In this document: piece by piece, positions 12,714-63,387 of the stretch | How the letters are laid out: each line of letters opens with the position of its first letter | Numbering within the stretch: position 1 is the stretch's first letter | Assembly: GCA_964497235.1 (NCBI GenBank) | Contig: CAZCCJ010000005.1 | Coordinates: 371 to 64,370 of the forward strand | DNA length: 64,000 nt | Reading direction: 5' to 3' | DNA from: an uncultured Staphylococcaceae bacterium | GTDB lineage: Bacteria > Bacillota_I > Bacilli_A > RFN20 > CAG-826 | Made by a program: the position numbers and the translations under genes | Notes under the pieces: generated by a model | What the model was told of the DNA's origin: nothing | The model's input: the letters and a program-made list of their open reading frames with translations, nothing else | Databases searched by the model: none

Positions 12714-12727
12714 TGTAAACGCTTACA
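12714..12727 (+). promoter_or_regulatory. cre-like (CcpA/LacI-type) operator
   Basis: TGTAAACGCTTACA fits WTGNAANCGNWNNCW at every constrained position. It lies 4 nt before the AAAGGAG ribosome-binding site of the 12745 gene. Confidence 0.5.
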
Positions 12728-12744
12728 TGCAAAGGAGTTTCTTT

Positions 12745-15731: not shown

Positions 15732-15833
15732 CATGGTCAAAAGCGTGCTTTCCATGAAAGGGGTTTCAAAACACAATTACGATGTATCAAAATGAGATAG
15801 TGGCAATTAGGCCAAAATGTTTTGGAGGCAATG

Positions 15834-16868: not shown

Positions 16869-16882
16869 GAAGGAGCATCGAA

Positions 16883-21121: not shown

Positions 21122-21132
21122 GAGGAAAAAAG

Positions 21133-23052: not shown

Positions 23053-23055
23053 CCT

Positions 23056-24456: not shown

Positions 24457-24469
24457 AAGGAGAAAAGAA

Positions 24470-27085: not shown

Positions 27086-27096
27086 GGGGGTTTTGC

Positions 27097-28701: not shown

Positions 28702-28702
28702 A

Positions 28703-42359: not shown

Positions 42360-42815
42360 GTCTCAATTATAGCCTTTTAGACGGAATCTCAATAAGTGAA
42401 TTGCGAAAAAATGTTATGTGAATGTATAGAAAATACGTAAATAGACGGCTTTTCTGTTTTTTCAATGATAAAAAAGAGCAAATTTTAGGTTTTATATGAC
42501 ATCGATGGTTTTTCGCTTTCGCCATTTTTTCCTCGATACGCTCGCTTAATTATAAAAAAGCAAAATGAGAAGAACGTCGATTAATGAAGGTTTTCCGACG
42601 TTTGAAAGCGAAAAGTTGCGATGAACTCTAACTTTAAGCGCCGCGAGCCCATACGTATGCGCAAAAGAACGTTCCTAGAGATAAAAAAACGCAATTTTTT
42701 AAGAGGTATATGCAAAAATGAAATGGGCGATGCTTTAAAATACCCATGATTGTAACCCCTTCCATGCTTTTCGCTAATGGCTGGGAATCAAAAAGAACAA
42801 CGGAGGAAAGAGAAT

Positions 42816-44420: not shown

Positions 44421-44432
44421 CCTAAAGCCACG

Positions 44433-46294: not shown

Positions 46295-46332
46295 GTCAAA
46301 GCCTCAAAAATTAAGGACAAGAAAGGACAAAA

Positions 46333-49284
46333 ATGAAAAAGAAATTCCTCGCCCTTCTCTTCTTGCCATCCCTTGGCGCAGCGTCTTTTTCCGCCATGCC
46401 GTCATTTGCGGAAGCGGGGGAGCTACCGACTTCGATGAGCATCGGCGAAAGCGTGCTCATTCCTTCGAAGACGCTTTCGTATAACGGCGAAAGCAAGACG
46501 GCTGATGTGATTGTCACCTCTCCTAGCGGCGGAACCTATTCCGGAAGCCGTTTGACTGCGGTGGAAAATGGCGTTTATCAGATCACTTATCGCGCTATAT
46601 TCGGGACGCACGAAGAAAAAGAGACGCATGATATACGCGTCGATTACCGCGCGTGCGACTTATTCGAAGGGAATGGCTATGTTTCTTCTAATCTCGGCGA
46701 ATTTAGCCTTGATAGCTCATTTTCCGGCGTCAAAGCCACTTTCGAAAACAACGGCGTCTTGACTTACAAGAAGCCGGTTGATCTGAATAAGCTTTCCGAC
46801 GACACGCCATTAGTTAGTTTCATAATCGATCCTTCGACGGTGGGGACTCAAGATTTCTCGACGTTCAACATCATCGTCACCGATGCCTATGACAAAAACA
46901 ATTACGTGACCATCAATTGCGTCGATTCCATCACTAACCTCAATGGCGAGGGGATGTACGTCAAAGCGGGCGCCGTCGGACAGACGCTTTATGGTTATGA
47001 AGAGGATACAAAACGCCATGACAATCCCTCTTTCGGCGCGAGTCTCCGTTCCGGCTTCCGCTCAATCAGCCTTAGTGGCGAATATCACACGGCCGACATC
47101 TATTTCGATTACGATGAACGCGCGCTTTATGGATATCCGAATTACCTAGGCACGCCGCTTATGAGGGAGATCGTCGATTTGGATGGCAAAGCGGACCATC
47201 CGACGGATCCCTTCAAAGGCTTTTCGTCAGGCATCGTCTATCTAAGTTTCGAGGCGAAGAATTTCTCAAGCGGCAAAGGCGACGTCGTCTTCACCTCGGT
47301 TGCGGGCGAAAACCTTAGCTTATCCTCTTATGTCGATGACGAAGCTCCTACATTAAACGTCGATTTGGCTGGAAATTCATCGGTTCCCGATGCGGTGCTT
47401 GGCAAGCCATACAAGATTTTCGAGGCTTCATCATTCGACGAATTCATCGGCGATGTCGATGTTTCTAGCGAAGTTTATTATTTGGCTAGCGACGGAAAGA
47501 GAATCGATGTTGACGTTAAGGACGGTTATTTCACTCCGCTGCATTTGGGTGATTACGAGATCGTTTATTCCGTAACTGACAATTTTCGTAATGAAGAAGA
47601 AGTCGTCATAAACGTTTCCTGCGTTAGAAAAACTCCATCCATCGTCGGGCTTCTTTCGACGAATAAGATGGATGCGACCGTCTATTCTTCGGTCGCTTTG
47701 CCATCACTAGATGATTTCTCCGTAAGCGGCGGCAGTGGGCGGCTCGAAAAAAGCCGTTTGCTTATCGACCCGGACGGAAACCTCTCCTCTCTTCATGAAG
47801 ATTCATTCGTTCCGACTAAAGTCGGTACTTACACCGTCCGTTATCAGGCATTCGACTATCTTGGCCAAGCGGCGATTTCCAACATCAAAGTCTCCGTCAA
47901 AAATCTTGATTCGCCGATTTTCCTAAATGAGATAAAACTGCCAGTCGCTTTATCGAAGGGCGAAAAAGTCGCTTTGCCGATCGTCAAGGCGATGAAGCCC
48001 GGCGAATCTTCTCCCGTCGAGAGCGAAGTGGAAATATTCGTGAATGGAACGAAGCTAGAAGGCAATTCCTTCGTTGCCGATGGCGACGGCGTTTCCATCG
48101 CCTATGTGGCCTCCTCTTTAAGAAAGGAATTCGAATTGCCCGTCGTTGATTTAGGAGAAGGAGCCAATCAAGAAAAATACTTTTATGGCGATGGCGATTC
48201 GACCGTTTCCGAAAACGATGTTTCATTCACCGCGAAAGAAGACGGGGAAGTTACGTTTTTACGCGCTTTGAAGCCATCGGCTATGTCCCTCAATTTCACT
48301 CTTCCGGATATGATCGACGGAGAGAAAGCCGAAATCGAATTAACGGATGGCGAAACCACAGTCACTTTGGCGCTTTCCAAAAACAATGACAACTACGTCC
48401 TTATCACATCGGAAAGCTCCACTTCAATCAGTTTGAACAACGATTCTACGATCTATCTTTCCTATGATAACGACACCCATAAGGTCTCCGATGGAACGGG
48501 CTATACGGTCGCGGCCTTGGGCGAAGATGATAATGGGAACGTTTTCAAAGGCTTCTCTAATGACATAACCTTATCTTTCCACTTGGCCAAAGATAGGTCG
48601 ATTTCCATTAAGAAAATCAATAACCAAACATTCGGAAAGCGCGGAAGGGAAACGCCTTCCGATCGAATCGGTCCAGAGCTATCATTCCAAAACATGCCGG
48701 CCGTCAAGCAAAAGGTGGGCTCTAAGGTGATTTTGCCATCCGCCAAAGCCTATGACGTCCTAAACGAAGTCGAATCCTTCACCTGCACTTTGACGAAGCC
48801 AGACGGCACCAAAACGGCCATCGATCCCAACATCAACAATGAGTTGTCGTTTGAGCAATACGGCTCTTACCGCCTCGAATATTTGGCAAGCGATAAGAAG
48901 GGCAATTCTTCGAAAACGACCCGCTTATTCAGCGTCTATGAATCGAATGAGCCGTCCTTCTCACTTACGTCTTCGCTAAAAGATTCATATAAAGTCGGTG
49001 AGGAGATTGCCTTGCCTAGCTACAAAGTAAGCGACGATTCTTCTTCTTACGTCGTTACTTTCATATTGCTTACGCCAGATTACGAAAGGGTGATGTTACT
49101 CAAAGACGAAAACGGGACGCCGACATATTATCTGGATAAGGACGATTATGCCTCATACCGCGTCTCCTCGACTTCCTTCAAAGTGAAGAAAGAGGGCAAA
49201 TACTCATTGCTCATCACGGCTAAGGATAGATTCTACAATTTCACATCCCAAACGATCGATTTCGTAGTGAAAGGAGCGAAATAA
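46333..49284 (+). CDS. Large (983 aa) Ig-array surface protein, paralogue of the 16883 gene product
   Basis: Signal peptide MKKKFLALLFLPSLGAASFSAMPSFA. Ig-like domain ends LGDYEIVYSVTDNFRN, VGTYTVRYQAFDYLGQ, YGSYRLEYLASDKKGN. Collinear matches to the 1412-aa protein are listed in the findings. Confidence 0.75.
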   Translation: MKKKFLALLFLPSLGAASFSAMPSFAEAGELPTSMSIGESVLIPSKTLSYNGESKTADVIVTSPSGGTYSGSRLTAVENGVYQITYRAIFGTHEEKETHDIRVDYRACDLFEGNGYVSSNLGEFSLDSSFSGVKATFENNGVLTYKKPVDLNKLSDDTPLVSFIIDPSTVGTQDFSTFNIIVTDAYDKNNYVTINCVDSITNLNGEGMYVKAGAVGQTLYGYEEDTKRHDNPSFGASLRSGFRSISLSGEYHTADIYFDYDERALYGYPNYLGTPLMREIVDLDGKADHPTDPFKGFSSGIVYLSFEAKNFSSGKGDVVFTSVAGENLSLSSYVDDEAPTLNVDLAGNSSVPDAVLGKPYKIFEASSFDEFIGDVDVSSEVYYLASDGKRIDVDVKDGYFTPLHLGDYEIVYSVTDNFRNEEEVVINVSCVRKTPSIVGLLSTNKMDATVYSSVALPSLDDFSVSGGSGRLEKSRLLIDPDGNLSSLHEDSFVPTKVGTYTVRYQAFDYLGQAAISNIKVSVKNLDSPIFLNEIKLPVALSKGEKVALPIVKAMKPGESSPVESEVEIFVNGTKLEGNSFVADGDGVSIAYVASSLRKEFELPVVDLGEGANQEKYFYGDGDSTVSENDVSFTAKEDGEVTFLRALKPSAMSLNFTLPDMIDGEKAEIELTDGETTVTLALSKNNDNYVLITSESSTSISLNNDSTIYLSYDNDTHKVSDGTGYTVAALGEDDNGNVFKGFSNDITLSFHLAKDRSISIKKINNQTFGKRGRETPSDRIGPELSFQNMPAVKQKVGSKVILPSAKAYDVLNEVESFTCTLTKPDGTKTAIDPNINNELSFEQYGSYRLEYLASDKKGNSSKTTRLFSVYESNEPSFSLTSSLKDSYKVGEEIALPSYKVSDDSSSYVVTFILLTPDYERVMLLKDENGTPTYYLDKDDYASYRVSSTSFKVKKEGKYSLLITAKDRFYNFTSQTIDFVVKGAK

Positions 49285-51143
49285 TGAACGGCAGAAGAAT
49301 ACTTATTCCCTTGATTTTGCTTTCTAGCGTCATTTCTTGCTCGCCATCTGAAATCAAGAAGTCCGAAGGCGAGGGGATGTCGATCATTTCCGATGGCTTA
49401 AGCGACTATAAGATCGTGATCCCGGAGAAGGCATCGACCTACGTTAGTCTCGCTTCAAGCGAGCTTAGCTATTTCCTCATGCAGTCTAGCGGCTACAAAA
49501 TGGAAGTCGTAAGCGACGAGAAGAACGTAACCGGCAAATACATTTCCTTAGGTTTGACCTCGCTTCTTGCTTCGTCTTCATCGTATAAGGATACGGACGA
49601 TTATGGCCTCTCCGGATATCGCGTTTTTTCGGAGAATGGGAATATATACATCTATGGGACGTCGAGCAAAAACGCCGGCACGTTATATGGGGTGTATGAT
49701 TTCCTCCACGAAACCATCGATTATGAGGCTTACGCGAGCGACGAATACTATTATGCGGCAAAGGACGAAGTCACTTACGATGGCAAGGACGAAGTCGTGA
49801 TGCCGAGCTTCGACGTCCGTTCGGTCGGATATAAATCGACCAATTCCGATTCGACCGTCACAAGGCGCCTTAGGCTAGAAACCCAAAGCGGATCGGACGA
49901 TTGGTACGGCTTTGGGCATTCACAGATCAATGGCTTCTATATCAACGTCAAGGATCGAGAAGAGAAAGTGGCCTCGGGCGAGTGGAAAAACGACTGGTTC
50001 GCCTCTTCGTCCAATACCGCAGCCGACAACCAGCTTTGCTATACCGGGGGCGAAGGGTTAGTGCAAGTCGTGGCCGATGCGATGATAGAGAAAATGAAAC
50101 TCCATCCAGACGCGACTTACTTCATGTTCGGGCAACAGGACAATTCCAATTTCTGCACCTGCTCGCGTTGCGAAAAAGCCAAAAAAGAGTGGGGATGCAA
50201 CACCTCAGGCCTTCAAATAGCTTTCATGAACGACGTCATCAAACTGACCGACGCCTACTTAAAGGAAAATGAACCGGGCAGGAAAGTGCGTTATGTCGTC
50301 TTTTCCTATACCGAAACTACCGCCCCTCCGACGAAGGAAGTGGATGGCAAATACGTTCCTTATTCCGATAAGGTGATCCCGAATGAGAACCTTTATTTCT
50401 ACTACGCCCCGATTGGGACCGATTTCTCTTCTGGGCTCGATTCGTTAAGCAATGAATCGTATTACGAAGCGATCCAAGGATGGAATGTCCTCGCGAGCGG
50501 GCGCATCCTATGCTATCTATACGATATTAATTTCCGTCACTATTTCCTCAATTTCTATAACGTGAACACTATTAAGAACATGTATTCGCTTTATAAGGAA
50601 TTCGGCGTTTCCTATATGTATTCGCAAGGGCCGCTAGACACTTCCGTTCCTTGCTTTGAGGAAGCGAGGGTCTATGTCGAGAGCAAATTGATGTGGGATG
50701 TCTCGCTTGATTACGAAGAAACGCTTATGGATTTCTTCACGCATTATTACGGACCGGCCGCGAAATACGTGAAGGAATATTGGGACCTTACCTTTGATGC
50801 ATCCGCTGAATATAGCGCGAATGGCAACTACATCGGCGGCATCTATAGCGCACTCAATAGCAGCTCCTTATGGACCGAACCTCTTGTGAGCGCCTTCCGC
50901 CGCTCATTTGATAAAGCCTATGAATCGATAAAGGACTTAGAACTTGAGAACCCATCCTTATATGAATCGTTGTTCACAAGGTTAAAGAAGATCGAATTGA
51001 CGGTTATATATCTGGAACTTTCGTATTATTCCTTATATTTCTCGAGCGACGAGGTCTCATCGAAGAAAGCCGATTTCGAGAAATACTGCGCTAAATTTGG
51101 CATCACCAAATCTAGCGAAGGCGGAAGCCTGCCCAATTTCTAA
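49284..51143 (+). CDS. DUF4838-like lipoprotein, paralogue of 21133-23052
   Basis: Lipobox VISC. YKIVIPEKASTYVSLASSELSYFL...YISLG. FGQQDNSNFCTCSRCEKAKKE has the same C-x-C-x-x-C motif. TAATG overlap with the upstream gene. Confidence 0.65.
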   Translation: MNGRRILIPLILLSSVISCSPSEIKKSEGEGMSIISDGLSDYKIVIPEKASTYVSLASSELSYFLMQSSGYKMEVVSDEKNVTGKYISLGLTSLLASSSSYKDTDDYGLSGYRVFSENGNIYIYGTSSKNAGTLYGVYDFLHETIDYEAYASDEYYYAAKDEVTYDGKDEVVMPSFDVRSVGYKSTNSDSTVTRRLRLETQSGSDDWYGFGHSQINGFYINVKDREEKVASGEWKNDWFASSSNTAADNQLCYTGGEGLVQVVADAMIEKMKLHPDATYFMFGQQDNSNFCTCSRCEKAKKEWGCNTSGLQIAFMNDVIKLTDAYLKENEPGRKVRYVVFSYTETTAPPTKEVDGKYVPYSDKVIPNENLYFYYAPIGTDFSSGLDSLSNESYYEAIQGWNVLASGRILCYLYDINFRHYFLNFYNVNTIKNMYSLYKEFGVSYMYSQGPLDTSVPCFEEARVYVESKLMWDVSLDYEETLMDFFTHYYGPAAKYVKEYWDLTFDASAEYSANGNYIGGIYSALNSSSLWTEPLVSAFRRSFDKAYESIKDLELENPSLYESLFTRLKKIELTVIYLELSYYSLYFSSDEVSSKKADFEKYCAKFGITKSSEGGSLPNF

Positions 51144-51160
51144 ACAAAGGAGCGAACAAA

Positions 51161-53380
51161 ATGAAAAAACAAAATCTCGCCTTGCTTATCCTCTCCTCGA
51201 CCTTGTTGCTTGGGTCTTGCGTATCGAATGGTTCCGACAAAACGACTTCATCGAGCGATAACGAGAGCCAAAAAGAGACGATAACGCTCAATAAAAAGTC
51301 CTTTTCTTTGGCGCCTGGGCAAACGTTTCAGCTTACTTCCTCAAAAGAAGGCGTCTCTTATTCGTCAAGCGACGCTAGCGTGGCGACGGTCGATTCCAAT
51401 GGCCTAGTCAAAGCGATCTCTCTAGGTTCGGCGATCATCACCGCCTCATTGGGCGATATCCAGGGCTTAGCAAAGGTCACCGTCACTGATGAGCTTATAT
51501 CAACTTTGTCGATAAATTTCGCGACTTCAAGCGTCGCCTTATATAGCGGTGAGAGTGTTGCTCTCTCTCCGGCCGTCAAATTCGGCGATGAGACGATAGA
51601 TAACGCGAATATCGAATATGGAAGCGCGGATGAAGACGTCGTAACCTACGCCGATGGGAAAGTGACGGCGAAGAAGGAAGGGAGCGCATCGATTTACGCG
51701 AAAGTGTCTTATGATGGCTATAGCGACGTCGCCTATGTCTCCGTTGAGGTTCTTTCCCTCAAAACCAGGATTCTCCCTGAATTCAAGGAAAGGAATGTGG
51801 TGGTCGGTGAAGAAGGCCTTGATCTCTCTTTCACTTTGTTAAAAGGCGATGATGAGATCGTCGGAACCCATTCATACACGTATTCTTTAAGCGACGAGAC
51901 GCTCGCCGAAGTCGATGGCAACGTTTTGAAAGGAAAGAAGAAGGGGAAAGTCGACCTTGTTGTCTCGACGATTTATGAAGGCGAAACCGTTTCCTTGACG
52001 ATTTCCTTCGTCGTCAATGAGTGGATCGATCTCGACTTCTATAGCGAAGGGGTTTTGTTCGAAACCCATAAGATACTCAATGGGAATTCCTTTGGGGAAA
52101 ACGTGGGGACGCCTGAATTAAGCGGCTATCAATTTGCCGGATACGTCGATCAAAACGGCGATTCGTTCACCAAAGATTCGATTTATGACGATAGCACCTC
52201 CTTTGAGGCGAGATGGCTTGCGATCACCGGAAAGATCGATGGCGCGAGGGGGACGCTAGTCAAAGGATTCTATTCGATAGATGAGTTTATCTGCCCTCAA
52301 AAGGGCCAAGACGGTTTTGGCTATTATTCGTGTAACGAAAAAGGCGACGCGAAGCTTGAAGAAGGGGAGTATGCGTTCAATCTCCAAGTCTCCGGGGTCA
52401 ATGATTACGATATAACGCTTCCTGCTTTCGATTTCGTTTCGGCTGGACGCGTTGATTTCTATTTCTCGGAGAATTATGGCGAATGGGACGTCTTAAGAAT
52501 CAATGGCGCTGAATATGTCTTCAATGCGAACACCGTGATGGTCACAGTCGCCGCAAATGGCGATGGCACTGCGTCTTTATATCTGAATGACGTCATTTTC
52601 ACGACTCTTGACACAGCTGTATCAAACGGCGAGGAAGGAATGAAACTCACCTTCACCCGCGATTCGGGGCATACTTATCAATCCTTCTATATCGGCCCGT
52701 TCATGAGCTATGTCTATGACTACAGGACCAAGTTAAACGATTTGGTCTCGTCTTTGCCCGCCGATCCATCGGCTTTGAGCGATGATGAATCCATCGCCTT
52801 ATTCAAAGGATACGCTGAAGCGGTTAGCTATCTCACGCCATACGAAACCATCCATTATAGCGAGCCGGCTAAGGTCATGGCGCTTAAGAATGCGATAAAA
52901 GGGAAGACGACGTCGTTATTCACGATACCAGAGGAAAGAAACTGGACGAGTGTCCGCGCGATTGGAATCGATACCGACGGCAAAGGCTTCTCGAATAACG
53001 GCGGAAGCGAATACATGGGCATCAATTTCCAAAGCGGCGGCATAAGCGATGGGATAACGCAGTACGTAAAATTCCCGAAGATTAACTATGCCCTCTATAG
53101 CTCCGTGGATTTCAAGATAATGCATAACTACATCGGTGCTTCGGTGAAAGTCGGAGAATCAGAACTTATTACGTTTAATGTAAAAGACACTTGGGTCGAT
53201 GTTTCGATTGCGAAGAATTCCGATGACAAGATGGCAATCACCTGCGGAACGACATCTATCGTTCTTAGCGATGAGGTCGCAAACGGCAAAGCCAATCTTC
53301 GTTTCGACGTCACTCGTGATAGAAGTCTAAGCGGCATGTACGACACTTTCGCATTCACGAAATTCGTCGCGACGTTCTAA
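51161..53380 (+). CDS. Lipoprotein with three Big_2 domains, a Listeria-Bacteroides-type repeat and a C-terminal module of about 340 aa
   Basis: Lipobox LGSC. Big_2 pattern YSSSDASVATVDSNGLVKAISLGSAIITA. GYQFAGYVDQNGDSF...FEARW. The C-terminal module is shared with the 53639 gene product. Confidence 0.75.
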   Translation: MKKQNLALLILSSTLLLGSCVSNGSDKTTSSSDNESQKETITLNKKSFSLAPGQTFQLTSSKEGVSYSSSDASVATVDSNGLVKAISLGSAIITASLGDIQGLAKVTVTDELISTLSINFATSSVALYSGESVALSPAVKFGDETIDNANIEYGSADEDVVTYADGKVTAKKEGSASIYAKVSYDGYSDVAYVSVEVLSLKTRILPEFKERNVVVGEEGLDLSFTLLKGDDEIVGTHSYTYSLSDETLAEVDGNVLKGKKKGKVDLVVSTIYEGETVSLTISFVVNEWIDLDFYSEGVLFETHKILNGNSFGENVGTPELSGYQFAGYVDQNGDSFTKDSIYDDSTSFEARWLAITGKIDGARGTLVKGFYSIDEFICPQKGQDGFGYYSCNEKGDAKLEEGEYAFNLQVSGVNDYDITLPAFDFVSAGRVDFYFSENYGEWDVLRINGAEYVFNANTVMVTVAANGDGTASLYLNDVIFTTLDTAVSNGEEGMKLTFTRDSGHTYQSFYIGPFMSYVYDYRTKLNDLVSSLPADPSALSDDESIALFKGYAEAVSYLTPYETIHYSEPAKVMALKNAIKGKTTSLFTIPEERNWTSVRAIGIDTDGKGFSNNGGSEYMGINFQSGGISDGITQYVKFPKINYALYSSVDFKIMHNYIGASVKVGESELITFNVKDTWVDVSIAKNSDDKMAITCGTTSIVLSDEVANGKANLRFDVTRDRSLSGMYDTFAFTKFVATF

Positions 53381-53385
53381 TGTCT

Positions 53386-53427
53386 AAAGAGAAGGGAGCC
53401 AAAAAGCGGTTGCCTTCTCTTTTTTTC
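53386..53427 (+). terminator. Rho-independent terminator ending the locus B operon
   Basis: aaagagaagg...ccttctcttt followed by a T-run. Confidence 0.65.
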
Positions 53428-53525
53428 GTCCGTCATTAATCATTTAAAGCAACTCCATGGCCATTTATTGCCGTCAAAAGCGAAAATATGACAATTAGCG
53501 GATAAAAAGAGATAAATGCTATTTT

Positions 53526-53539
53526 TGAAAGCGGTTACA
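53526..53539 (+). promoter_or_regulatory. cre-like operator upstream of the mosaic surface-protein gene
   Basis: TGAAAGCGGTTACA, preceded by T, fits WTGNAANCGNWNNCW. Confidence 0.45.
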
Positions 53540-53638
53540 ATGATGTCGTATAAAAAGGGTCTTTTTGCGCATTCCAACTATTGATCAGCGGAAATGGCGC
53601 GAACAGAATCGCAAAACAAGAAAGAAAGGATCATCACA

Positions 53639-55846
53639 ATGAAGAAGAAAAGATTGATGGCTTTGTCGCTTGCGACCGTCGCATCCGTCATGGGCGTCGG
53701 CGCCGTCGGGATCTCGCTTGGCAATGGCGGCCTCATCGCGCCGGCCTACGCCGCGGACCACGACGCCTCGCACACGATGGTCGAGAAGACGTTCTTCGCT
53801 CCGACGACTACCACGACCGGCGAGAGGGCGCATTGGCACTGCAACGACTGCTGCAAGACGAGCGCCGAGCAGGCGAGGTACTCCTACGTCGAGAAGACCC
53901 ACGTCTCGGAGGCCGACATCACGCTCGATAAGCTCGTGGCGGCCGACGCCCCGAGCGCGGACGACGACCAGATCGCCACCATCAACACCGGGAAGTTCAA
54001 ATACGTCGACCAGGGCGCCGACGGTGTCGACGGCAAGGAGGGCACCTCGACGCCTTGCTGGGTCGAGGACGGCGGGAAGACCGCCATCTATTTCTCCCGC
54101 TCGAACAAGGCCGGCGACCCGGTGAACTCGGGGGACAACGTCAACTGCTCCGAGTTCCGCTTCACGGTCCCCGAAAGCGCCAGGAAGGCGGAATCCGTAT
54201 CCTTCTCCTACAAATACGAGGATTGGGGGACCGGCGTTTGGAACGGGGGAGACAACGGCGCCCAGCCTTACGGGTCCCACGCGATGATCCAGTTCAAGGA
54301 CGGCAGCTACGTCGGCCACGACGTCACCTCAACGCTTGAGAAAGACGGTGAATGGCACACGATGACGCTCGACTACTCGGGCGGCGCCACGACCAGCTTC
54401 TCCGACTTGATCTTCAAGTTCGTCGACCTCCGCGGATACATCATGGTCTCGGGCCTCTCATATGAGCTCGCCCCGGTCACGGTGGCCCTCAAGAACGTCA
54501 CCGCCGACAACAGCGCCGACGGAAGCGCGACCGTCGAGGTGGGATCCCTCCCCGACGCCCCGGCGGCCATAAGCGGCAAGAGGTTCCTCGGCTGGTACGA
54601 CGAAAGCGGAAGCAAGGTCACGGCCGTGACGTCAAGCACGACGGCATTGGTGGCGAAATGGGCACAAATTACAGCTAATTCGAACTATGCGACGGTTGAG
54701 ACGTTAGTGACATACAATACTGATTCTAAAATCGTTTGCCCCGATAAAAGCGGCATAGAAGAAAGGGCTGATGGCGTTACGCTTCAACTTCAAAAATCGG
54801 GCGTGAATTCTTATGATATCACCCTTCCTGCGTTCGATTATAATTCGGCAGGTCGCGTGGATTTCATTCTCAGGCAAAATTACGGCTCTAGCCATAAACA
54901 TGGCGTTATCACGGCAGGCGATGGCACATTCGCCTTCTCGACGGTTGCAAAAGATGAAGTCGCTGTTTACGTTGTTTCCGATGGCAAGAACGCTTCGCTT
55001 TATATCGAAGGCAATCTCATTACGACATATGATGAGGATGTTTCTTCCGGAAAAAGCGGTCTATCTTTCAATTTCCAAAGGGAAAGCGATTGCATATATG
55101 CGGTTCTTAAGATAGGCGATTTTAAGAGGTATACCGTTGATTATACGGAACTTTTGAAGACGAAGGCGGAATCCTTGCCTGATGCTTCTTCTATCACCGA
55201 CGATACCAAAGCGGCGGCAGTTTCATCGTACAAAGATTATGTCGATTTCGCATTGGTGGCCGATTCGATGATGACGACATACGAGAAAAACAATTACTCG
55301 GCGCCATCCAAGATTTCCGAACTTCGCACTGCGTTGGCTGGGCAAACGGTTGAGGTTCTTTCGATTCCTTCAAGCGGTTCGGGCTGGACCACTGCGAATT
55401 CGTTGGGCTTCTATAGCGATTCCCCTTATGCGGTAAGTTGCAGTAACAATTCGAAACACAGCACCAATTACATTGGAATCGATCTCCAAAATGGCGGATA
55501 CACGGAGACCAAAACATATTATGTTGATCTTCCGAAAATCAACTATGCAGCCTATAGCAAAGTGACTTTCTATATGTATTCAGCGGGTGGCAGCTGCGTT
55601 ATAAAAGCAGACGGCAACGATTGGGTTAGCGATGCCAATTGGCCGAATGGCGATTGGCCGTGCCCAATCACTATATCGACCACTAACGGTGTGACGAAAA
55701 TCAGCACAGATAGCGGAAAATCGGCTGAGCTTAGCGAAGAAGTTGCCAATGGCACCAAAGCGCTTCGTTTCGAAAGAACTCGCGAAGCTACAAGCACTGC
55801 AGGATACGATTCGATAGGCATTAGCACGATGACAGCGACTATCTAA
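53639..55846 (+). CDS. Secreted surface protein: high-GC-encoded N-terminal beta-sandwich (CBM-like) module plus Listeria-Bacteroides repeat, fused to the C-terminal module shared with 51161-53380
   Basis: Signal peptide MKKKRLMALSLATVASVMGVGAVGISLGNGGLIAPAYA. RFLGWYDESGSKVTAVTSSTTALVAKW. The C-terminus VNSYDITLPAFDYNSAGRVDF... matches VNDYDITLPAFDFVSAGRVDF.... Start set at ATG 53639, after AAAGGA. Confidence 0.7.
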   Translation: MKKKRLMALSLATVASVMGVGAVGISLGNGGLIAPAYAADHDASHTMVEKTFFAPTTTTTGERAHWHCNDCCKTSAEQARYSYVEKTHVSEADITLDKLVAADAPSADDDQIATINTGKFKYVDQGADGVDGKEGTSTPCWVEDGGKTAIYFSRSNKAGDPVNSGDNVNCSEFRFTVPESARKAESVSFSYKYEDWGTGVWNGGDNGAQPYGSHAMIQFKDGSYVGHDVTSTLEKDGEWHTMTLDYSGGATTSFSDLIFKFVDLRGYIMVSGLSYELAPVTVALKNVTADNSADGSATVEVGSLPDAPAAISGKRFLGWYDESGSKVTAVTSSTTALVAKWAQITANSNYATVETLVTYNTDSKIVCPDKSGIEERADGVTLQLQKSGVNSYDITLPAFDYNSAGRVDFILRQNYGSSHKHGVITAGDGTFAFSTVAKDEVAVYVVSDGKNASLYIEGNLITTYDEDVSSGKSGLSFNFQRESDCIYAVLKIGDFKRYTVDYTELLKTKAESLPDASSITDDTKAAAVSSYKDYVDFALVADSMMTTYEKNNYSAPSKISELRTALAGQTVEVLSIPSSGSGWTTANSLGFYSDSPYAVSCSNNSKHSTNYIGIDLQNGGYTETKTYYVDLPKINYAAYSKVTFYMYSAGGSCVIKADGNDWVSDANWPNGDWPCPITISTTNGVTKISTDSGKSAELSEEVANGTKALRFERTREATSTAGYDSIGISTMTATI
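53660..54660 (+). other. Compositionally foreign (about 70 % GC) segment inside the 53639 CDS
   Basis: Hand counts of GC per 60 nt: 44 of 60 at 53701-53760 and 41 of 60 at 54001-54060, versus 25 of 60 at 54661-54720. GC at third codon positions is 18 of 20 codons from 53702 versus 8 of 20 codons from 54658. Confidence 0.85.
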
Positions 55847-55885
55847 TTGTTCGCTGACGTTCGATATCCGAAAAACACGATTGTT

Positions 55886-55920
55886 CCTGGGCCAAGCAAC
55901 ATACTTGGCCCAGGTTTTTC
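55886..55920 (+). terminator. Strong rho-independent terminator
   Basis: cctgggccaag-caacata-cttggcccagg (11-bp stem) followed by ttttt. Confidence 0.8.
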
Positions 55921-55942
55921 TAAAATGATATAAAATGCATCT

Positions 55943-56686
55943 ATGCCTAAAATCGAAGCGGTCAATCTAACGGTGACGTATCCAGCCAAAGGAGGCCTTG
56001 AGTTCATTTGCCTCGATTCCTTGAATGCCGTTTTCGAATCCAACGAGATAAACGTCATCTTAGGCGAATCCGGTTCTGGCAAAAGCACCCTTCTTAAAGC
56101 GATCGCCGGAACGATGAAATATGAAGGCGAGATACTTTTCGATGATGTCCCAGCTAGAAAGATATCGCCGAAAAATAGGAAGATAGCCTTCGTCGATCAG
56201 GAAATAACCTTATATCCGAATAGAACCATTTTCGATAACCTCGCTTTGCCGTTATCTTTGTCTCGCCTTAAGCCGGATGAAATGAGGCACAAAATACATG
56301 AAACGGCCAAAAAATTAGGGATATTAGCCACTTTATCTCGACTTCCGAGACAAATATCGATAGGGCAACAACAACGCGCATGCCTTGCGAAAGCAATCGT
56401 CAAAGATCCTTCCGTCCTTCTTCTCGACGAGCCTTTTTCCAATATCGACGAAAATAGAAGGAAAGAAGAAAGGGAGCTTCTTAAGGGGCTCGTCAAAGAA
56501 AAGGGAATCACGGTCGTTATGGCCACGCATCTAGAAGAAGATGTGCTTTCTTTAGGAGAGAGGGTGCATCTATTGGAGAATGGGAAGATCTCATTATCGC
56601 TAAAGAAAGAGGAGCTTCCTTATTCTTCGAATCCCATGATACGTCTAATGATGGCTTCGCGTTTAAACGGTGACAACGATGGCTAA
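55943..56686 (+). CDS. ABC transporter ATP-binding protein (MalK/MsmX-like nucleotide-binding domain without the C-terminal regulatory domain)
   Basis: Walker A GESGSGKST, Q-loop FVDQ, atypical signature ISIGQQQR, Walker B LLLDEPFSNID, H-loop MATH. 247 aa. Confidence 0.85.
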   Translation: MPKIEAVNLTVTYPAKGGLEFICLDSLNAVFESNEINVILGESGSGKSTLLKAIAGTMKYEGEILFDDVPARKISPKNRKIAFVDQEITLYPNRTIFDNLALPLSLSRLKPDEMRHKIHETAKKLGILATLSRLPRQISIGQQQRACLAKAIVKDPSVLLLDEPFSNIDENRRKEERELLKGLVKEKGITVVMATHLEEDVLSLGERVHLLENGKISLSLKKEELPYSSNPMIRLMMASRLNGDNDG

Positions 56687-57536
56687 GAAGAAAAGGATCA
56701 AAAGCAAGCCCAGCGATTTTTCTTTTTCTGGTTTGCCAGACACCAGAAGAAAGCAATTTTTCGATTGCCTTAGGAATAGGTGGGGCCTTTTCCTCAAAGT
56801 GGGGGTGATATTCGCCTTCCTTTCCTTATTGATCGTCGCTCTCATCTATGCAAGGGATCTTGTCATGCATAACGTCTCGAACAACGAATCGTTGGATGAA
56901 GTGGCCAAAAAGAGCCAATTAGCCACTATGTCGACGACCTTTGCCTCGCTTATCGCCGTTTCTATCGTTATGTTTTGCCTCCCTCTTGGCGGGATTCTTA
57001 GGATTTATAGAAGTCTCATTTACGACGAAGGGGTCTTCTTCTTTTCCGACTTCAAGAAAGGCTTCAAAGAGACTTGGAAAGTTTCTTTAGTGATTGGGAT
57101 ATTACTTGGAGGCGGCTATTTCGCTTCTGCTTTCTACAAGGAGATCATCGATATTTCCTATCTTTCTTACGCTCCATATGGGGTATTGATATTTTTGGTG
57201 TTTCCATGGGCTTTCACGACTCTTTCGTACGCTTCGATTTATTCATCTTCATTCAAGGTGATCATCCAAAATGGGTTCGTGCTCACTGTCAAAAGCTTCC
57301 TTAAAGCGTTGCTTTTCGTCTTACTTTCCGTTTTGCCTTTGCTATTCCTTCTCATTCCGTCATCGGTATATAGATACGTCGCCTTGGTCCTTTGCTTCTT
57401 GCTCTATTATCCATTGGTCTTATTCGGCTTTTATCTTATGGACATCGCCTTATTCGATACGGAAATCAATTCCAAGATGGATAATGGCTTATATCATAAA
57501 GGGCTATACGACGAAAACATCAAATTGGACGAATGA
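56679..57536 (+). CDS. Polytopic membrane protein, YesL/DUF624-like (tentative)
   Basis: Five or six hydrophobic helices. The loop IYRSLIYDEGVFFFSDFKKGFKETWKVSL resembles the conserved DUF624 segment. It overlaps the ATPase gene end. A GTG at 56670 is an alternative start. Confidence 0.5.
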   Translation: MAKKKRIKSKPSDFSFSGLPDTRRKQFFDCLRNRWGLFLKVGVIFAFLSLLIVALIYARDLVMHNVSNNESLDEVAKKSQLATMSTTFASLIAVSIVMFCLPLGGILRIYRSLIYDEGVFFFSDFKKGFKETWKVSLVIGILLGGGYFASAFYKEIIDISYLSYAPYGVLIFLVFPWAFTTLSYASIYSSSFKVIIQNGFVLTVKSFLKALLFVLLSVLPLLFLLIPSSVYRYVALVLCFLLYYPLVLFGFYLMDIALFDTEINSKMDNGLYHKGLYDENIKLDE

Positions 57537-59242: not shown

Positions 59243-60097
59243 TTATTTGATGGACACTTTGTAGGTTGTGACGTCTTCGACGACCTCGCCGTCGATTTGA
59301 AGGCCGCATGGTTTATCAAAGGAGACGACGATTTCTTTGCCTGTCTTAATGAAGACGTTCTTCTTGTATTTGACGTGTGTGCCGGAGAAGATCTTCGGGA
59401 ACATCATCAAGGTGCCGATCTTCCCTTTGCCATAGATCGTGACGAAGGAGAGGAGACCGCCATTACGGATTTGATCAGGGGCTACCCGCATGCCGCCGCC
59501 ATAATATTTTCCAAACATGGAGGAGGCCAAATAGACCTTCTTGAATTCGAATTTCTCGCCATCCACAGTGACGGTCGCGTTACGGGGTTTGAAGCCGTTG
59601 AAAAGTAACGAGATCGTGATCTTGGAATAGTCGATTTTCTTCTTGCCCGCTTTCTTCATTTGCTCGGCGACAACGCAGCAATCGCCGTCGATTCCGAATC
59701 CGATGCCGTTGATGAAGCGATATGTTTTGCCTTTGACTTCGATTGTCGGAAGCCCTTTTAAGCAATCATTTAGCTTGACTAGTCCATCTTCATCGACGAC
59801 TTCTTTCCTATCGTTAAGGAAGTCGTTTCCGGTTCCCATCGGCAAAAGATAGATATCGACTGGGAAAGAGGAAGGGTCAAAGACGTTGATGAAATGGTTG
59901 AGCGTGCCATCTCCGCCGGCCAAAAGGACTTTGTCGCCTTCTTTGAAGGTCTTTTGCTCTTCTTCCCAGGCGACGTCATGGGCGTTCCTCATCTCGATTT
60001 TTTCGCCCCACTTGGCTTCGAGCTTCGCTTTGATGGGCTCGAGGCTCGCCGATAGGTTGTTGTTATCGGCTAAAGCGTTGTAATAAAGATAGATCAT
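59243..60097 (-). CDS. Diacylglycerol-kinase-family lipid kinase (YegS/DagK-like)
   Basis: The DAGK catalytic motif reads VLLAGGDGTLNHFIN, plus PMGTGNDF. 284 aa. Confidence 0.8.
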   Translation of the reverse strand: MIYLYYNALADNNNLSASLEPIKAKLEAKWGEKIEMRNAHDVAWEEEQKTFKEGDKVLLAGGDGTLNHFINVFDPSSFPVDIYLLPMGTGNDFLNDRKEVVDEDGLVKLNDCLKGLPTIEVKGKTYRFINGIGFGIDGDCCVVAEQMKKAGKKKIDYSKITISLLFNGFKPRNATVTVDGEKFEFKKVYLASSMFGKYYGGGMRVAPDQIRNGGLLSFVTIYGKGKIGTLMMFPKIFSGTHVKYKKNVFIKTGKEIVVSFDKPCGLQIDGEVVEDVTTYKVSIK

Positions 60098-60924
60098 CGT
60101 GATTTCCTCCTTTTTTCAAAATCATCTTTAATCATATCATGGCAATAGGAAGATATTTCGGTGACGTTCTTGCCTTCGTAATCCTCTTTATGCAAGACCG
60201 TCAGCACATTGGCTTCGATTGTGACATGTCGCCAAGGGCAGCATTTCTTGATGGCTTTGGTGTTCTTTAAGTCAATCACGACGATCGGAGCGCCGATTTC
60301 CGTGGCTATTTTGAAGGTGCCAGGATGAAAGGGGAGAAGCGATTCTCTCGTCTTGTTTCTTGTTCCTTCTGGGAAAATGCAGACGTGGCCCGTATTCGAG
60401 GAAATCACCTCGCTTGCCTTCTCGATTGCTTTTAAAGCGTTCTTCGGATTCTCCCTATCGATCGGTATGAATCCGGAATGATGGACGAAGGGGCCGGCGA
60501 TTGGGAAAGACATGTTCTCGGGCTTGGTGACGCAGATAAGGGGCGCGTTTCCAACCAAATCGATGAGAATCATCGGATCGAAGTTCGAATTGTGGTTCAT
60601 GATGAAAAGGCACTTCTCATCGTGCGGTATCTTCTCGAATCCCTTTTTCCTTATGAAGATGCGAAGGATCTTTATCAGCCAAACGTCCGTGTTCCTTAAG
60701 ATCCAATAGTAGAAGGACGAATAATGCCCTTCTTTGCTCTTATCGATGAATTTCCCCCAGATGACTAGGATTATGACCCATATCCCGAAGAGTATCGCCC
60801 AAACTGGCATGAAAAAGAGAAGGGATACGAAAAAGTAATACCAATCGGTGTATATGCATAGTAGATAGGTTAGGTATCCCGATAGCCCTAATGAGGCGAG
60901 GATAGAGATGACGGTTAAAAACAT
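60094..60924 (-). CDS. plsC: 1-acyl-sn-glycerol-3-phosphate acyltransferase
   Basis: NHNSNFDP (H-x4-D) and FPEGTRN motifs. Two N-terminal TM helices. 4-nt overlap with the lipid kinase gene. Confidence 0.85.
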   Translation of the reverse strand: MFLTVISILASLGLSGYLTYLLCIYTDWYYFFVSLLFFMPVWAILFGIWVIILVIWGKFIDKSKEGHYSSFYYWILRNTDVWLIKILRIFIRKKGFEKIPHDEKCLFIMNHNSNFDPMILIDLVGNAPLICVTKPENMSFPIAGPFVHHSGFIPIDRENPKNALKAIEKASEVISSNTGHVCIFPEGTRNKTRESLLPFHPGTFKIATEIGAPIVVIDLKNTKAIKKCCPWRHVTIEANVLTVLHKEDYEGKNVTEISSYCHDMIKDDFEKRRKSR

Positions 60925-60985
60925 CACAATGATTTTAAGACAAAGCCATCTTTAATTCCATAAACAAAAAACAGGGCCCGCGAAT

Positions 60986-61013
60986 AATGAAAAAGAGGGG
61001 TCGCCCCCCTCTT
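60986..61013 (-). terminator. Rho-independent terminator of pckA
   Basis: On the minus strand: aagagggg-ggcga-cccctctt followed by ttttt. Confidence 0.65.
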
Positions 61014-61031
61014 ATTGATGAGAATCTTTTT

Positions 61032-62639
61032 TTAATCGATGGACGGACCCGCTTTAACGAGGGCTTTTCCAGCGTCGTTAGACTCGTATTTGACGAAGTT
61101 CTTTTGGAAGCGAGAGGCCAAATCCTTGGCTTTCTCTTCCCATTCCTTGGCATCTTGATAGGTGTCGCGAGGATCCAAAATCTTGGAATCGACGCCCGGA
61201 AGGGAGGTAGGGACCTCGAAATTGAAGAACGGGATCGTCTTCGTTTCGGCGTTAAGGATGTCGCCATTGAGGATGGCGTCGATGATGCCGCGGGTATCTT
61301 TGATCGAGATACGTTTGCCAGAGCCATTCCAGCCGGTGTTCACGAGATAGGCCTTCGCGCCGCTCTTTTGCATTTTCTTGACGAGCTCTTGGGCGTATTT
61401 GGTTGGATGTAACTCCAAGAAAGCCTGTCCGAAGCAAGCGGAGAAGGTCGGCGTTGGGGAGGTTATACCTCTTTCGGTGCCGGCGAGCTTGGCGGTGAAG
61501 CCGGAAAGGAAATAATATTGCGTTTGCTCAGGGGTGAGGATTGAAACAGGCGGCAAAACCCCGAAGGCGTCGGCGGATAGGAAGATGACGTTCTTCGCCG
61601 CTGGGCCATGGCTAATCGGTTTGACGATGTTGTTAATATGATATATAGGATAGGAAACGCGGGTGTTTTCTGTCACCGACTTGTCGGCGAAATCGATTTT
61701 GCCGTCTTTATCGACGGTGACGTTTTCGAGAAGGGCATCGCGCTTGATGGCGTTATAGATGTCCGGCTCGCTCTCTTTATCGAGGTTGATGACTTTCGCG
61801 TAGCATCCTCCTTCGAAATTGAAGACGCCGTTATCGTCCCAGCCATGCTCATCGTCGCCGATCAAAAGTCTCTTTGGATCCGTCGACAACGTCGTTTTGC
61901 CAGTGCCAGATAATCCGAAGAAGATGGCGGTGTTCTCACCCTTCATATCGGTGTTGGCGCTGCAATGCATGCTCGCTATGCCTTTAAGCGGGAGATAGTA
62001 GTTCATCATCGAGAACATGCCTTTCTTCATCTCGCCGCCATACCAGGTGTTCAATATGACTTGCTCTTTTGAGGTGATGTTGAAGGCGACGCAGGTCTCG
62101 CTATTCAATCCGAGTTCCGAATAGTTGTCGACTTTCGCCTTCGAGGCGTTATAGACGACGAAATCCGGCTCGAAATGCTTTAGCTCATCTTCCGATGGGC
62201 GGATGAACATGTTGCGGATGAAGTGGGCTTGCCAAGCGACTTCGACTATGAAGCGGACGGCCATTCTCGTGTCTTTGTTGGCTCCGCAATAGGCGTCGAC
62301 GACGTATAGCTTTTTGTTCGATAGCTCCTTGATGGCGAGCTCTTTGACGCTCTTCCAAGAGTCTATCGTCATCGGGTGGTTGTCGTTTGGGTATTCTTTG
62401 CTATTCCACCAAACGGTGTCCTTCGAATTCTCGTCGACGACGATGTATTTGTCTTTTGGCGAGCGTCCGGTGAAGACGCCGGTCATGACGTTCACCGCGC
62501 CAAGTTCCGTGACTTGCCCTTTCTCATATCCTTCGAGTTCTTCTTTCGTCTCTTCCTCGTAGAGGTAGTCGTAGGAGGGGTTGTATATGACCTCTTTTGC
62601 GCCTTTGATGCCGTATTTCTCCAAATCAAGTGGTTTCAT
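61032..62639 (-). CDS. pckA: Phosphoenolpyruvate carboxykinase (ATP)
   Basis: The kinase-1a motif reads [13 protein letters not shown], plus LIGDDEHGW. Start at ATG 62639, after AAAGGAG; the upstream extension in the track lacks a ribosome-binding site. Confidence 0.95.
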
Positions 62640-62667
62640 TGCAATTAGCTCCTTTCGCTTTGATTTA

Positions 62668-63387
62668 TTAATCCTGGTGAAGCGAGGCTTCCCCAGAAGT
62701 AATCGTGATTGTCTCCCCATCGTCTTTCTTTAACGACAAGGATCCGTCTTTTGCTATCCCAGCGGCTACTCCGGTTATGTTTTCGCCATAATAGTTAAGG
62801 GTGATCGTTTTGCCGTATAGATAGTCTTTTTTCCTCGCTATCGTGAGGTATTTCTCCCCACCGGCGAGATAATCTTCCAGCGTTTCGTCGAATTCCTTTA
62901 AGAAGGATTCCGTGATTTCGTCGAGATCGAATTCCTTCTTCGTTTCCATCCTTAGGGAAGTGGCTAAGGGAAGAGAAGAAGGGAAAGAGGTCTGATTGAC
63001 GTTTATTCCGATTCCTATCACGATGGCTTCTTGCTTTTCCTTATAAACGCCTTCAAGCAATATGCCAGCGCATTTTTTGTTGTTTAGATAAACGTCATTG
63101 GGCCATTTGAGATACGCGTCGATGCCTTTTTTCGCTAAAGCCGCAATAAGAGAAGCGGCGGCGATCAAGGGTAAAACGGAACGCGCTTTCTCGTATTTGT
63201 CTCCTTTTAGCAAAATGCTAAATGGCAGCATTCCTTCGCTAGATAGCCAACTTCTCCCTCTTCTTCCTTTGCCGGAAAGCTGAGAGAAGGCGATGACGAC
63301 GGTTCCATCTTCGAGGCTGTCGTAGTTCTCTAAGAGATAGTCGTTAGTGCTATTTATTTCTTCGAAGCGAAGGAAAGAGTGAGTCAT
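62668..63387 (-). CDS. birA: Biotin--[acetyl-CoA-carboxylase] ligase (class I, no HTH)
   Basis: [12 protein letters not shown] biotin-binding loop. 239 aa. Confidence 0.85.

Follow-up and report, generated by a model that had tools for sequence, protein, structure and literature searches.

Mosaic surface-protein genes shaped by intragenic recombination are a familiar class of variable bacterial locus, with the pneumococcal PspA and CbpA genes, the pbp mosaics and the genes for the M-like proteins of streptococci among its members. Antigenic-variation loci of the kind represented by Borrelia vlsE/vls and Neisseria pilE/pilS form another class, in which an expression site is accompanied by silent cassettes. 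Accessory or imported DNA is usually shifted toward AT, and compositional islands, in the model of Lawrence and Ochman, reportedly arise by horizontal transfer and are later ameliorated. The current report concerns a gene that can be compared with each of these systems: the open reading frame (ORF) at 53639-55846 on the plus strand of a stretch of 64,000 nucleotides (the window) from contig CAZCCJ010000005.1, assembled for an uncultured Staphylococcaceae bacterium. The N-terminal part of its product, referred to here as the head, is encoded by very GC-rich DNA, and the remainder, the tail, by DNA of host-like composition. Mosaic surface genes and compositional islands are known kinds of object; what is unusual in the present case is a GC-rich cassette that is written in host-type codons, has no matching source and belongs to an unannotated protein family. 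Compositional outliers are routinely read as imports from a donor of matching composition, and this textbook-looking case fails that reading.

The likeness to mosaics of the PspA/CbpA type lies in the position of the head as a variable, exposed N-terminal module between conserved edges, in conflicting module phylogenies, in sharp breakpoints and in a divergence faster than that of the flanks; unlike those mosaics, the swapped head lies ~30 points of GC3 (GC at third codon positions) away from the rest of its gene and genome and has no matching donor. As in the vls and pilS systems, a variable cassette is bounded by conserved sequence, with recombination and not point mutation as the probable source of variation, but the 64-kb window holds no silent cassette or second head copy, and exchange is seen between species and between paralogues. 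Like the islands ascribed to transfer, the head tract is atypical, sharp-edged and located in an accessory, surface-exposed gene; unlike them, it has the codon usage of the recipient clade, no donor lineage, and near-saturated divergent copies that are all GC-rich. Against the usual AT shift of imported DNA, it is here the tail that is AT-shifted and not the head.

A further comparison is provided by GC-biased gene conversion (gBGC). According to Lassalle et al. 2015, recombining bacterial genes have a higher GC3, mainly through non-optimal GC-ending codons (PMC4450053). In the mouse Fxy gene, as described in PMC2631073, strong recombination affects the 3' part, which belongs to the pseudoautosomal region, and one part of the gene accumulates AT-to-GC changes. 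The head resembles both cases in that its GC is raised at synonymous sites, in non-optimal codons and in a recombining segment, and Fxy offers a precedent for a gene of which one part is GC-driven and the other is not. Compared with the bacterial effects that PMC4450053 describes, the GC3 step of ~30 points looks much larger, and the bias itself is here presumed.

A sharp compositional switch within one reading frame

In the following, the window is locus W where it is compared with others, related loci and proteins carry L and P numbers, and the neighbouring genes of each locus serve as its GC3 baseline. The intragenic mosaic is real and sharp. In 200-nt windows, GC amounts to 0.38-0.42 upstream of the gene, 0.58-0.665 over 53600-54700 and 0.40-0.50 downstream; the 1-kb tract as a whole has a GC of 0.642, compared with a window mean of 0.468 (sd of 1-kb windows, 0.027) and with 0.545 for the runner-up region of the window, feoB. 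Codons 1-339 have GC 0.64 and GC3 0.89, the remainder GC 0.46 and GC3 0.47, and nearly all of the shift falls in the third codon position, with GC1 and GC2 little altered. Per 20 codons, GC3 is 0.75-1.0 through codons 1-340 and 0.30-0.70 in the later codons. In a two-state maximum-likelihood fit the switch falls just behind codon 339 (nt 54655; twice the log-likelihood difference, 2ΔlnL, 153; support interval, codons 329-341), which is the end of ...TTALVAKW. At the other end, GC3 increases from about codon 9-10, within the signal peptide.

An earlier note on this DNA, prepared from the letters alone, had claimed an abrupt switch inside this ORF, and sliding-window GC, GC3 and the change point all bear it out. 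Its hand counts of GC (44/60, 41/60 and 25/60) are exact on recount, its fall of GC3 from 18/20 to 8/20 codons holds, and both boundaries lie where it had placed them, the 5' one within the signal peptide and the 3' one directly after a repeat (...ALVAKW), which itself scores below the Pfam threshold (see the last section).

The head is atypical for its recipient genome both in GC (0.64 vs 0.468) and in GC3, which at 0.89 compares with 0.59±0.05 (maximum 0.71) for the 38 other genes of the window (z = 5.9). The GC3 of the tail, 0.47, is at the low end of the host genes. In the tails of several head-bearing genes (window 54662-55846, L009, L011, L012 and L013), GC3 is ~2-3 sd under the host gene average, for example 0.47 vs 0.59 and 0.53 vs 0.68. 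Tails generally fall short of the host mean, and the head genes are compositionally odd in both directions.

The modules of the gene, as far as they can be delimited, are as follows.

53639..53752, plus strand: hydrophobic N terminus (aa 1-38), either a signal peptide or an anchor, read from the sequence, with an inferred cleavage site (...APAYA/AD)
53660..54655, plus strand: GC-rich tract (GC 0.64, GC3 0.89), the exchanged cassette, from composition, change point and homology between W and L005
53759..53938, plus strand: small N-terminal subdomain of the head with H-x3-H and C-x2-C-C (C68, C71, C72), from alignments and a confident AlphaFold2 (AF2) model
53981..54466, plus strand: predicted β-sandwich (jelly-roll) core of the head, like that of carbohydrate-binding modules (CBMs), a putative glycan-binding module, from the AF2 model and Foldseek
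54467..54661, plus strand: linker and one degenerate Listeria-Bacteroides-type repeat (...GKRFLGWYDESGSKVTAVTSSTTALVAKW), forming the 3' edge of the cassette, with a sub-threshold Flg_new match
54662..55846, plus strand: tail of host-like composition, predicted to form two β-sandwich (lectin/jelly-roll-like) domains with a helical linker between them

Two further reading frames over the tract, a 244-aa antisense ORF (53585-54319, minus strand) and a 151-aa out-of-frame ORF, are present as the earlier note had listed them. Long ORFs in two other frames might suggest a genuine gene, overlapping or antisense, that restricts the third positions of the head. Neither ORF is longer than chance would allow, as judged from 1000 shuffles of the head's synonymous codons (p = 0.13-0.45), and the translations are of low complexity and rich in Arg, Pro, Val and Gly, as GC3-rich DNA predicts. 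We regard such a gene as highly improbable, and the note's own description of these frames as a high-GC artefact agrees with the shuffles.

Relatives, codon usage and exchange of the head

Searches with the head and the tail covered 5.8 billion proteins, a profile search 1.84 billion representative proteins, and GC-independent scans for peptide patterns 185,579 GTDB species representatives together with metagenomes. The head alone has four matches among the 5.8 billion proteins, at 43-48% identity and all in low-GC metagenome-assembled genomes (MAGs). The tail has a single match, P0003, which is itself head-bearing and is encoded in L002, a locus syntenic with the window at 42.7-57.5 kb whose neighbouring proteins are 56-77% identical. 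The profile search recovered ~45 head-bearing clusters, the window protein being P0006, and in these the head always stands N-terminally, behind a signal peptide, with many unrelated tails joined to it. The pattern scans yielded 11 loci in the GTDB representatives, including L005 with the closest head (67% aa identity), and 5 in metagenomes; L025 was added by exact look-up. Flanking GC ranges over 0.33-0.56 across all 22 loci, and L002, L006, L009 and L014 keep the gene order of the window, with neighbouring proteins 56-78% identical. A head homologue in a high-GC genome was found neither in these two protein collections nor among the GTDB species representatives, and IMG/VR viral contigs and PLSDB plasmids hold no member of the head family. 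Judged from these matches, the head family is restricted to uncultured low-GC gut Bacilli. Exact look-ups of the head protein and of the ABC ATPase found no second assembly of the exact junction, and the contigs of L021-L024, reached through the pckA homologues P0161, P0167 and P0170, are not syntenic with the head locus.

Some of the MAGs carry discordant NCBI labels: Parasutterella excrementihominis for L008, Paludibacteraceae for L009, Bacteroidaceae for L011 and Lachnospiraceae for L012. The bins of L009 and L011 look mislabelled or contaminated, since both contigs preserve synteny with the window, to whose proteins their neighbouring proteins are 61-88% identical; L008 and L012 share only the head match, without syntenic neighbours, and their labels are merely doubtful.

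The codon usage of the head is the pattern of the host clade pushed to G/C endings. Its Leu codons are CTC (10), TTG (4) and CTT (3), with 0/17 CTG, and its eight Arg codons are AGG (4), CGC (3) and AGA (1), with no CGG. The host clade avoids CTG and CGG and uses AGG, even in L013, the member richest in GC among those sampled (flanking GC 0.557), a pattern that points to a special tRNA repertoire. Usage among G/C-ending synonyms correlates with that of the host at r = 0.88 and with that of mycobacteriophage L5, the one genome that served as control for actinobacterial-type codon usage, at r = 0.40. A host-conditional codon model fits the head better than one based on this 62% GC phage, by a log-likelihood difference (ΔlnL) of 17.9. 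The preferences expected from such a donor, with CTG, CGG and CGC favoured and AGG rare (in L5: CTG 0.46, CGG 0.30, AGG 0.08), are not those of the head when judged against this one control genome. In most of the sampled hosts (the window and most of L001-L020), CTG and CGG are avoided and AGG and AGA heavily used, and the genes of the window have CTG at 4% of Leu and CGG at 2-3% of Arg; CTG reaches 9-13% in L002, L008, L009 and L013.

The earlier note had proposed that the head was swapped in as a cassette from a high-GC donor, for instance an actinobacterial neighbour. The part of this proposal that concerns a cassette recombined at domain boundaries stands, on the grounds of the W/L005 homology and the head tree described below; the donor does not. 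Searched separately, the head (43-67% identity) and the tail (52-54%) have relatives only in the same low-GC Bacilli lineage, an outcome that the note itself had named as one that would count against it, and because both halves match that one lineage at comparable identity, the reading of a high-GC donor fails. A donor from another phylum would account for the sharp boundaries, and a GC of 0.64 with a GC3 of 0.89 is typical of genomes of ~62-65% GC. Against it stand the lack of any homologue outside the low-GC Bacilli clade in any of the collections searched, the codons of the head (CTG 0/17, CGG 0/8, AGG 4/8; host model better by 17.9 lnL) and the occurrence of the same mosaic in many related genomes with divergent heads. 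We consider a cross-phylum donor close to refuted, and the searches and codons together show no high-GC donor.

The G/C-ending codons of the head are also not those of a gene that we take as proxy for high expression, the conserved pckA: the head has CAG in 5/5 cases, CAC at 0.88 and AGG at 0.5, and pckA has CAA at 0.91, CAT at 0.75 and AGG at 0.06, with a preference for CGC. Translational optimization of the head is ruled out by this use of non-optimal G/C codons. At conserved residues the heads of W and L005 use the same codon in 0.70 of cases, compared with 0.57 expected from codon usage, and so their synonymous sites would be ~70% of the way to saturation; both heads hold GC3 near 0.88 in spite of this divergence.

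Evidence for exchange of the head comes from the comparison of gene types, of which the transcription signals and the upstream paralogue are part.

51161..53380, plus strand: paralogue upstream of the target gene, a surface protein of lipoprotein type that contains Big_2 domains, from Pfam Big_2/Big-like matches
53386..53427, plus strand: intrinsic terminator of the paralogue (inverted repeat 53386-53400 / 53408-53422, then a T run)
53526..53539, no strand assigned: box like a catabolite-responsive element (cre), TGAAAGCGGTTACA, which matches TGWNANCGNTNWCA and is a candidate CcpA site located ~100 nt before the ATG
55886..55922, plus strand: intrinsic terminator of the target gene (11-bp stem with 8 GC pairs, then TTTTT)

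The head of W is nearest to that of L005 (67% aa), which belongs to a different gene type, located beside an AraC regulator, whose tail shares only 28% identity; with its counterparts in the syntenic orthologues L002, L006 and L009, the head of W shares only 43-51%. The tail follows the syntenic gene: it is common to the paralogue and the syntenic orthologues and is 52-54% identical to the tails of L002, L006 and L009. A tree of the heads disperses the syntenic genes (W, L002, L006/L009 and L014) over three clades, where they are mixed with other gene types, W grouping with L005, L002 with L007 and L008, and L006 and L009 with L003, L011 and L014. Breakpoints can be read from profiles of nucleotide identity. 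Between L002 and L007, identity is 87-97% over the stretch from -98 to +140 and 40-70% past its limits, and still further upstream the DNA is unrelated; L014 shares 80-97% identity with L003 between -89 and +450; and homology between W and L005 is confined to +36..+990 (mean ~76%), reaching background precisely where the GC changes. In pairs of close genomes the heads diverge faster than the flanks, as in L007 and L008, where the heads are 71-85% and the AraC genes 83-93% identical. The paralogue of the window shares only the repeat and the tail with the target (33% identity over target aa 311-735 by BLASTP), so that their alignment starts at the repeat, the place to which the earlier note had pointed, and its GC3 of 0.57 is typical of the host. 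Module phylogenies that conflict and identity profiles that break abruptly are both hallmarks of mosaic genes, and this pattern of sequence relationships supports a head that is an exchangeable cassette, swapped by recombination at domain boundaries.

The exchanged unit might extend beyond the coding sequence. The cre-like box occurs ~100 nt upstream of head genes of all types and has been counted in eight of them, occupying in L002, L005, L006, L007, L008, L009 and L014 the same position as in W; given this conservation, the exchangeable unit can include the cre box, the promoter, the 5' untranslated region (5'UTR), the signal peptide and the head. In the 64 kb of the window there are only two sites with the strict consensus TGWNANCGNTNWCA, at 12714 and 53526, and the box at 53526-53539, which matches that consensus, is promoter-proximal and is conserved in orthologues, qualifies as a putative CcpA site. 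The other site, at 12714, directly precedes the gene at 12727-14775. Box and terminators are present where the earlier note had them, and with terminators both upstream and downstream the target gene forms a transcription unit by itself. No second head copy was detected in the 64-kb window by blastn or tblastn, and no flanking repeats; site-specific inversion and the use of silent cassettes were rejected for these reasons.

The GC3 step is not confined to this genome. It occurs at module edges in L005, L007, L008, L003/L011, L006/L009, L016 and L025, and in W, L005, L007 and L008 it lies at the end of the repeat; a search for the same junction in relatives, as the earlier note had advised, thereby finds the step in independent assemblies.

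L005: head GC3 0.87, neighbouring genes 0.55, tail 0.52
L008: head GC3 0.91, neighbouring genes 0.57
L003: head GC3 0.79, neighbouring genes 0.60
L016: head GC3 0.58, neighbouring genes 0.45
L025, first head: GC3 0.81, neighbouring genes 0.65±0.06

The heads of L007 and L004, both on short contigs, have GC3 of 0.81 and 0.76. Only a subset of heads is strongly raised over the GC3 of neighbouring genes. The pairs L003/L011 (96.8% identical) and L006/L009 (92.3%) are collinear across both junctions. A chimeric contig or a binning artefact would be conceivable for a window that probably comes from a MAG and whose exact proteins are not in the contig index; it would need two chimeric joins that are both in frame, and independent assemblies, the pairs L003/L011 and L006/L009 among them, repeat both the joining of head to tail and the GC step, with the same gene in the same place in the syntenic loci L002 and L009. 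The recurrence of the step in independent assemblies argues against a chimera, to which we attach hardly any weight.

In the gene at L025 8001-10187 (P0005, 728 aa), two heads in tandem are followed by a short tail, and GC3 declines from 0.81 in the first head to 0.69 in the internal second head and 0.61 in the tail; it is the first head that adjoins the exchange anchors. This gene is located next to homologues of window 59243-62720 (DAGK-like, acyltransferase and pckA), a position at which the window has no head gene.

Readings of the GC enrichment

The explanation that we favor can be outlined as follows. The ORF at 53639-55846 would encode a secreted or surface glycan-binding protein of a Gram-positive polysaccharide-utilization-type locus in an uncultured low-GC gut Bacillus of Acholeplasmatales- or Erysipelotrichales-like kind, and its N-terminal 340 codons constitute a hypervariable, clade-specific cassette made up of the signal peptide, a Cys/His subdomain, a CBM-like β-sandwich and one repeat. 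Homologous recombination has moved this cassette repeatedly, between paralogous gene types as well as between lineages, through crossovers at conserved edges. On the 5' side these edges are formed by the cre box, the 5'UTR and the signal peptide, and on the 3' side by the point at which the β-sandwich or the repeat ends. The head of the window results from such an exchange and shares its sub-type with that of L005. Repair of heteroduplex DNA with a bias toward GC (gBGC) would then act on the segment that recombines most and raise its synonymous GC. The mosaic, the hypervariable cassette, its repeated exchange and the clade-type codon usage are shown here, and it is the cause of the GC enrichment that is inferred. 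To this explanation as a whole, a recombining hypervariable head whose GC was raised within the clade by a recombination-linked, GC-biased process, we assign a probability of roughly 0.5. For a gBGC-like cause taken alone, our expectation falls somewhat short of even. A more pointed version, in which the head is an extreme, sharply bounded gBGC hotspot where recurrent exchange drove GC3 to ~0.9 in a genome of 47% GC and left the non-exchanged tail at or below the host level, is put forward here more tentatively still.

A recombination-linked, GC-biased process is favoured because the recombination is demonstrated, because the shift is synonymous and toward non-optimal codons, and because it persists across divergent cassette lineages. 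Two features expected of gBGC are found: the G/C-ending codons that carry the raised GC3 are the non-optimal ones (CAG, CAC and AGG, by comparison with pckA), and the tract coincides with the most-recombining segment, the first head of L025 being GC-richer than the internal one. Several observations weigh on the other side. As far as the effects described by Lassalle et al. (PMC4450053) can be compared by description alone, a GC3 step of ~30 points looks much larger. The step is completed within ~15 codons, and a recent import with a crossover at a domain edge would look alike. Heads in hosts of 33-35% GC, as well as those of L012, L013 and L019, stand at the GC3 level of their hosts, and in the syntenic orthologues the rise is slight (L002, 0.67 vs 0.59; L009, 0.74 vs 0.68). 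By eye, the co-transferred 5'UTR (-100..-1) is still AT-rich, although its composition may be constrained, since it carries the cre box, the promoter and the ribosome-binding site.

The chief alternative is that the head was imported from a higher-GC member of this Bacilli clade that has so far escaped sampling. Such relatives would have ~60% GC or more, a GC3 near 0.9 and the codon preferences of the clade, and their heads would have entered W, L005, L008, L003/L011 and others by independent, recent transfers at the conserved cassette edges, without having drifted yet to host composition. This would explain the sharpness of the GC3 steps and their location at domain edges well; cassette exchange is demonstrated, and clade-type codon usage fits an import of this kind as well as it fits a process in situ. 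The spread of flanking GC in the clade (0.33-0.56), together with a neighbour GC3 of 0.76 in L013 and the same CTC>CTG, AGG-rich usage there, makes an even GC-richer relative conceivable. On the other hand, no head-bearing genome with a host GC3 above 0.76 appeared among the 22 loci or in the GC-independent scan of the 185,579 GTDB representatives, and in L012 and L013, the hosts richest in GC, the head does not exceed its host. The reading would also call for at least five imports, recent and independent of one another, of heads with 33-50% difference in aa sequence, from a lineage that went undetected in all of the searches. As a proxy for the GC of the host we also used the amino-acid composition of the tails (the residues GARP minus FYMINK), by which 0/35 representative proteins have a GARP-rich tail, a weak test in view of its poor calibration (r = 0.31). 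On balance we think import from within the clade unlikely.

Selection on the synonymous sites of the head, in its mRNA or DNA, is a second rival; its object could be the stability or structure of the mRNA, the pace of co-translational secretion and folding, or the avoidance of AT-rich motifs, for instance internal promoters, Rho sites and slippery runs. That the elevation is almost purely a matter of third positions and persists across divergent cassette lineages would agree with such selection, as would the tandem protein of L025, in which the N-terminal head is GC-richer than the internal one, so that position in the mRNA might matter. The codons of the head differ, however, from those of pckA, the paralogue and the other secreted proteins of the same loci show nothing similar, and no specific target motif was identified in the head. 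Heads of the same family stand at host GC3 in other hosts, which implies that the protein or domain itself does not require high GC. Synonymous selection is in our estimation an improbable cause.

If the favoured gBGC-like process is indeed at work, the gene would represent unusually strong gene-internal evidence for gBGC in bacteria, where its operation is still debated, it would advise caution toward calls of horizontal transfer that are based on composition, and the tract would be a sequence signature by which recombination-driven hypervariable surface modules might be found in uncultured gut bacteria. If the hotspot version should be correct, the head would be a prokaryotic counterpart of mouse Fxy, and some GC islands that look foreign within bacterial genes would mark recombination hotspots and not transfer from GC-rich donors. 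Whatever the cause, the head belongs to an undescribed family of ~45 clusters of swappable, CBM-like heads, which probably reside in Gram-positive glycan-utilization loci behind a conserved cre box.

Protein modules and neighbourhood

The whole target protein has no Pfam match, and the head family has no annotation in Pfam, in NCBIfam or in the source records and no membership in a CBM family at the sequence level. An AF2 model of the head from a 27-sequence alignment (mean predicted local distance difference test score, pLDDT, 88) consists of the small His/Cys subdomain followed by the β-sandwich; residues 1-33 have a pLDDT below 50. In the 27 aligned heads the subdomain is marked at aa 41-100 by the motif H-D-x-x-H ... 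C-x2-C-C, of which C72 is invariant and H41, C68 and C71 nearly so; in a 5-sequence alignment all four are invariant. The motif might bind a metal or form a disulfide knot. In the more distant relatives P0037, P0082 and P0112, repeated CxxC...CxxC units precede each β-sandwich instead.

Foldseek matches the head sandwich to CBM28, CBM16, CBM4, CBM29, CBM6 and CBM11 (E 1.5e-4 to 1e-3) and, in one case, to a surface glycan-binding protein (SGBP) of Bacteroides, SGBP-B (7kwc). With target template modeling (TM) scores of 0.4-0.56, root-mean-square deviations of 4-10 Å and identities of 9-14%, the likeness is one of fold. The head is on the strength of this model a putative glycan-binding module. 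The resemblance to CBMs and Bacteroides SGBPs extends to the setting of the gene among sugar-transporter, DUF4838, GH3, GH130 and Big_2 genes behind a cre box, a genomic context (ABC sugar transporter, DUF4838, GH3 and GH130) that is merely suggestive of a role with glycans; unlike the members of CBM families, the head matches at the level of the fold only (TM ~0.5, 9-14% identity).

The repeat at the edge of the cassette (...GKRFLGWYDESGSKV...LVAKW, aa 278-354) scores 18.8 bits against Pfam PF09479 Flg_new, below the cut-off of 27 (E 0.0018). The repeat part of the family profile matches many multi-repeat proteins, and the one that was checked, P0027, has 19 Flg_new repeats, which lends indirect support to the Listeria-Bacteroides-type resemblance. 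The AF2 model of the tail has a pLDDT of 82, and its Foldseek matches are to fold classes only.

Around the target gene are encoded ABC sugar-transporter permeases, a solute-binding protein, a DUF4838 protein, large Ig-like surface proteins and an ABC ATPase, and a second, similar locus at 15.8-29.5 kb carries GH130 and GH3 genes; by gene content the neighbourhood looks like a Gram-positive glycan-utilization locus. The two loci of this type, at 15822-29557 and 42777-57536, are paralogous. Besides a DUF4838 protein and a Big_2 surface protein, both encode surface proteins of very large size that lack annotation (1412, 871 and 983 aa), and the one at 15822-29557 has in addition an AraC regulator, GH130 and GH3.

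The nearest named relatives of the pckA of the window are found in Acholeplasmataceae and Bacilli MAGs, at 86% identity, and on this ground the host is taken to be an uncultured gut Bacillus of low GC. A pckA homologue at L021 3270-5471 (P0161, 733 aa) is ~200 aa longer than usual and has two overlapping matches to the pckA of the window (residues 4-502 and 300-559), which points to an internal partial duplication or an assembly artefact. The window also contains two paralogous AAA_14/DUF4143 ATPase genes, at 804-2105 and 36104-37291, with a similar one in L022, and tRNA genes at 33555, 35804, 40204 and 40285.

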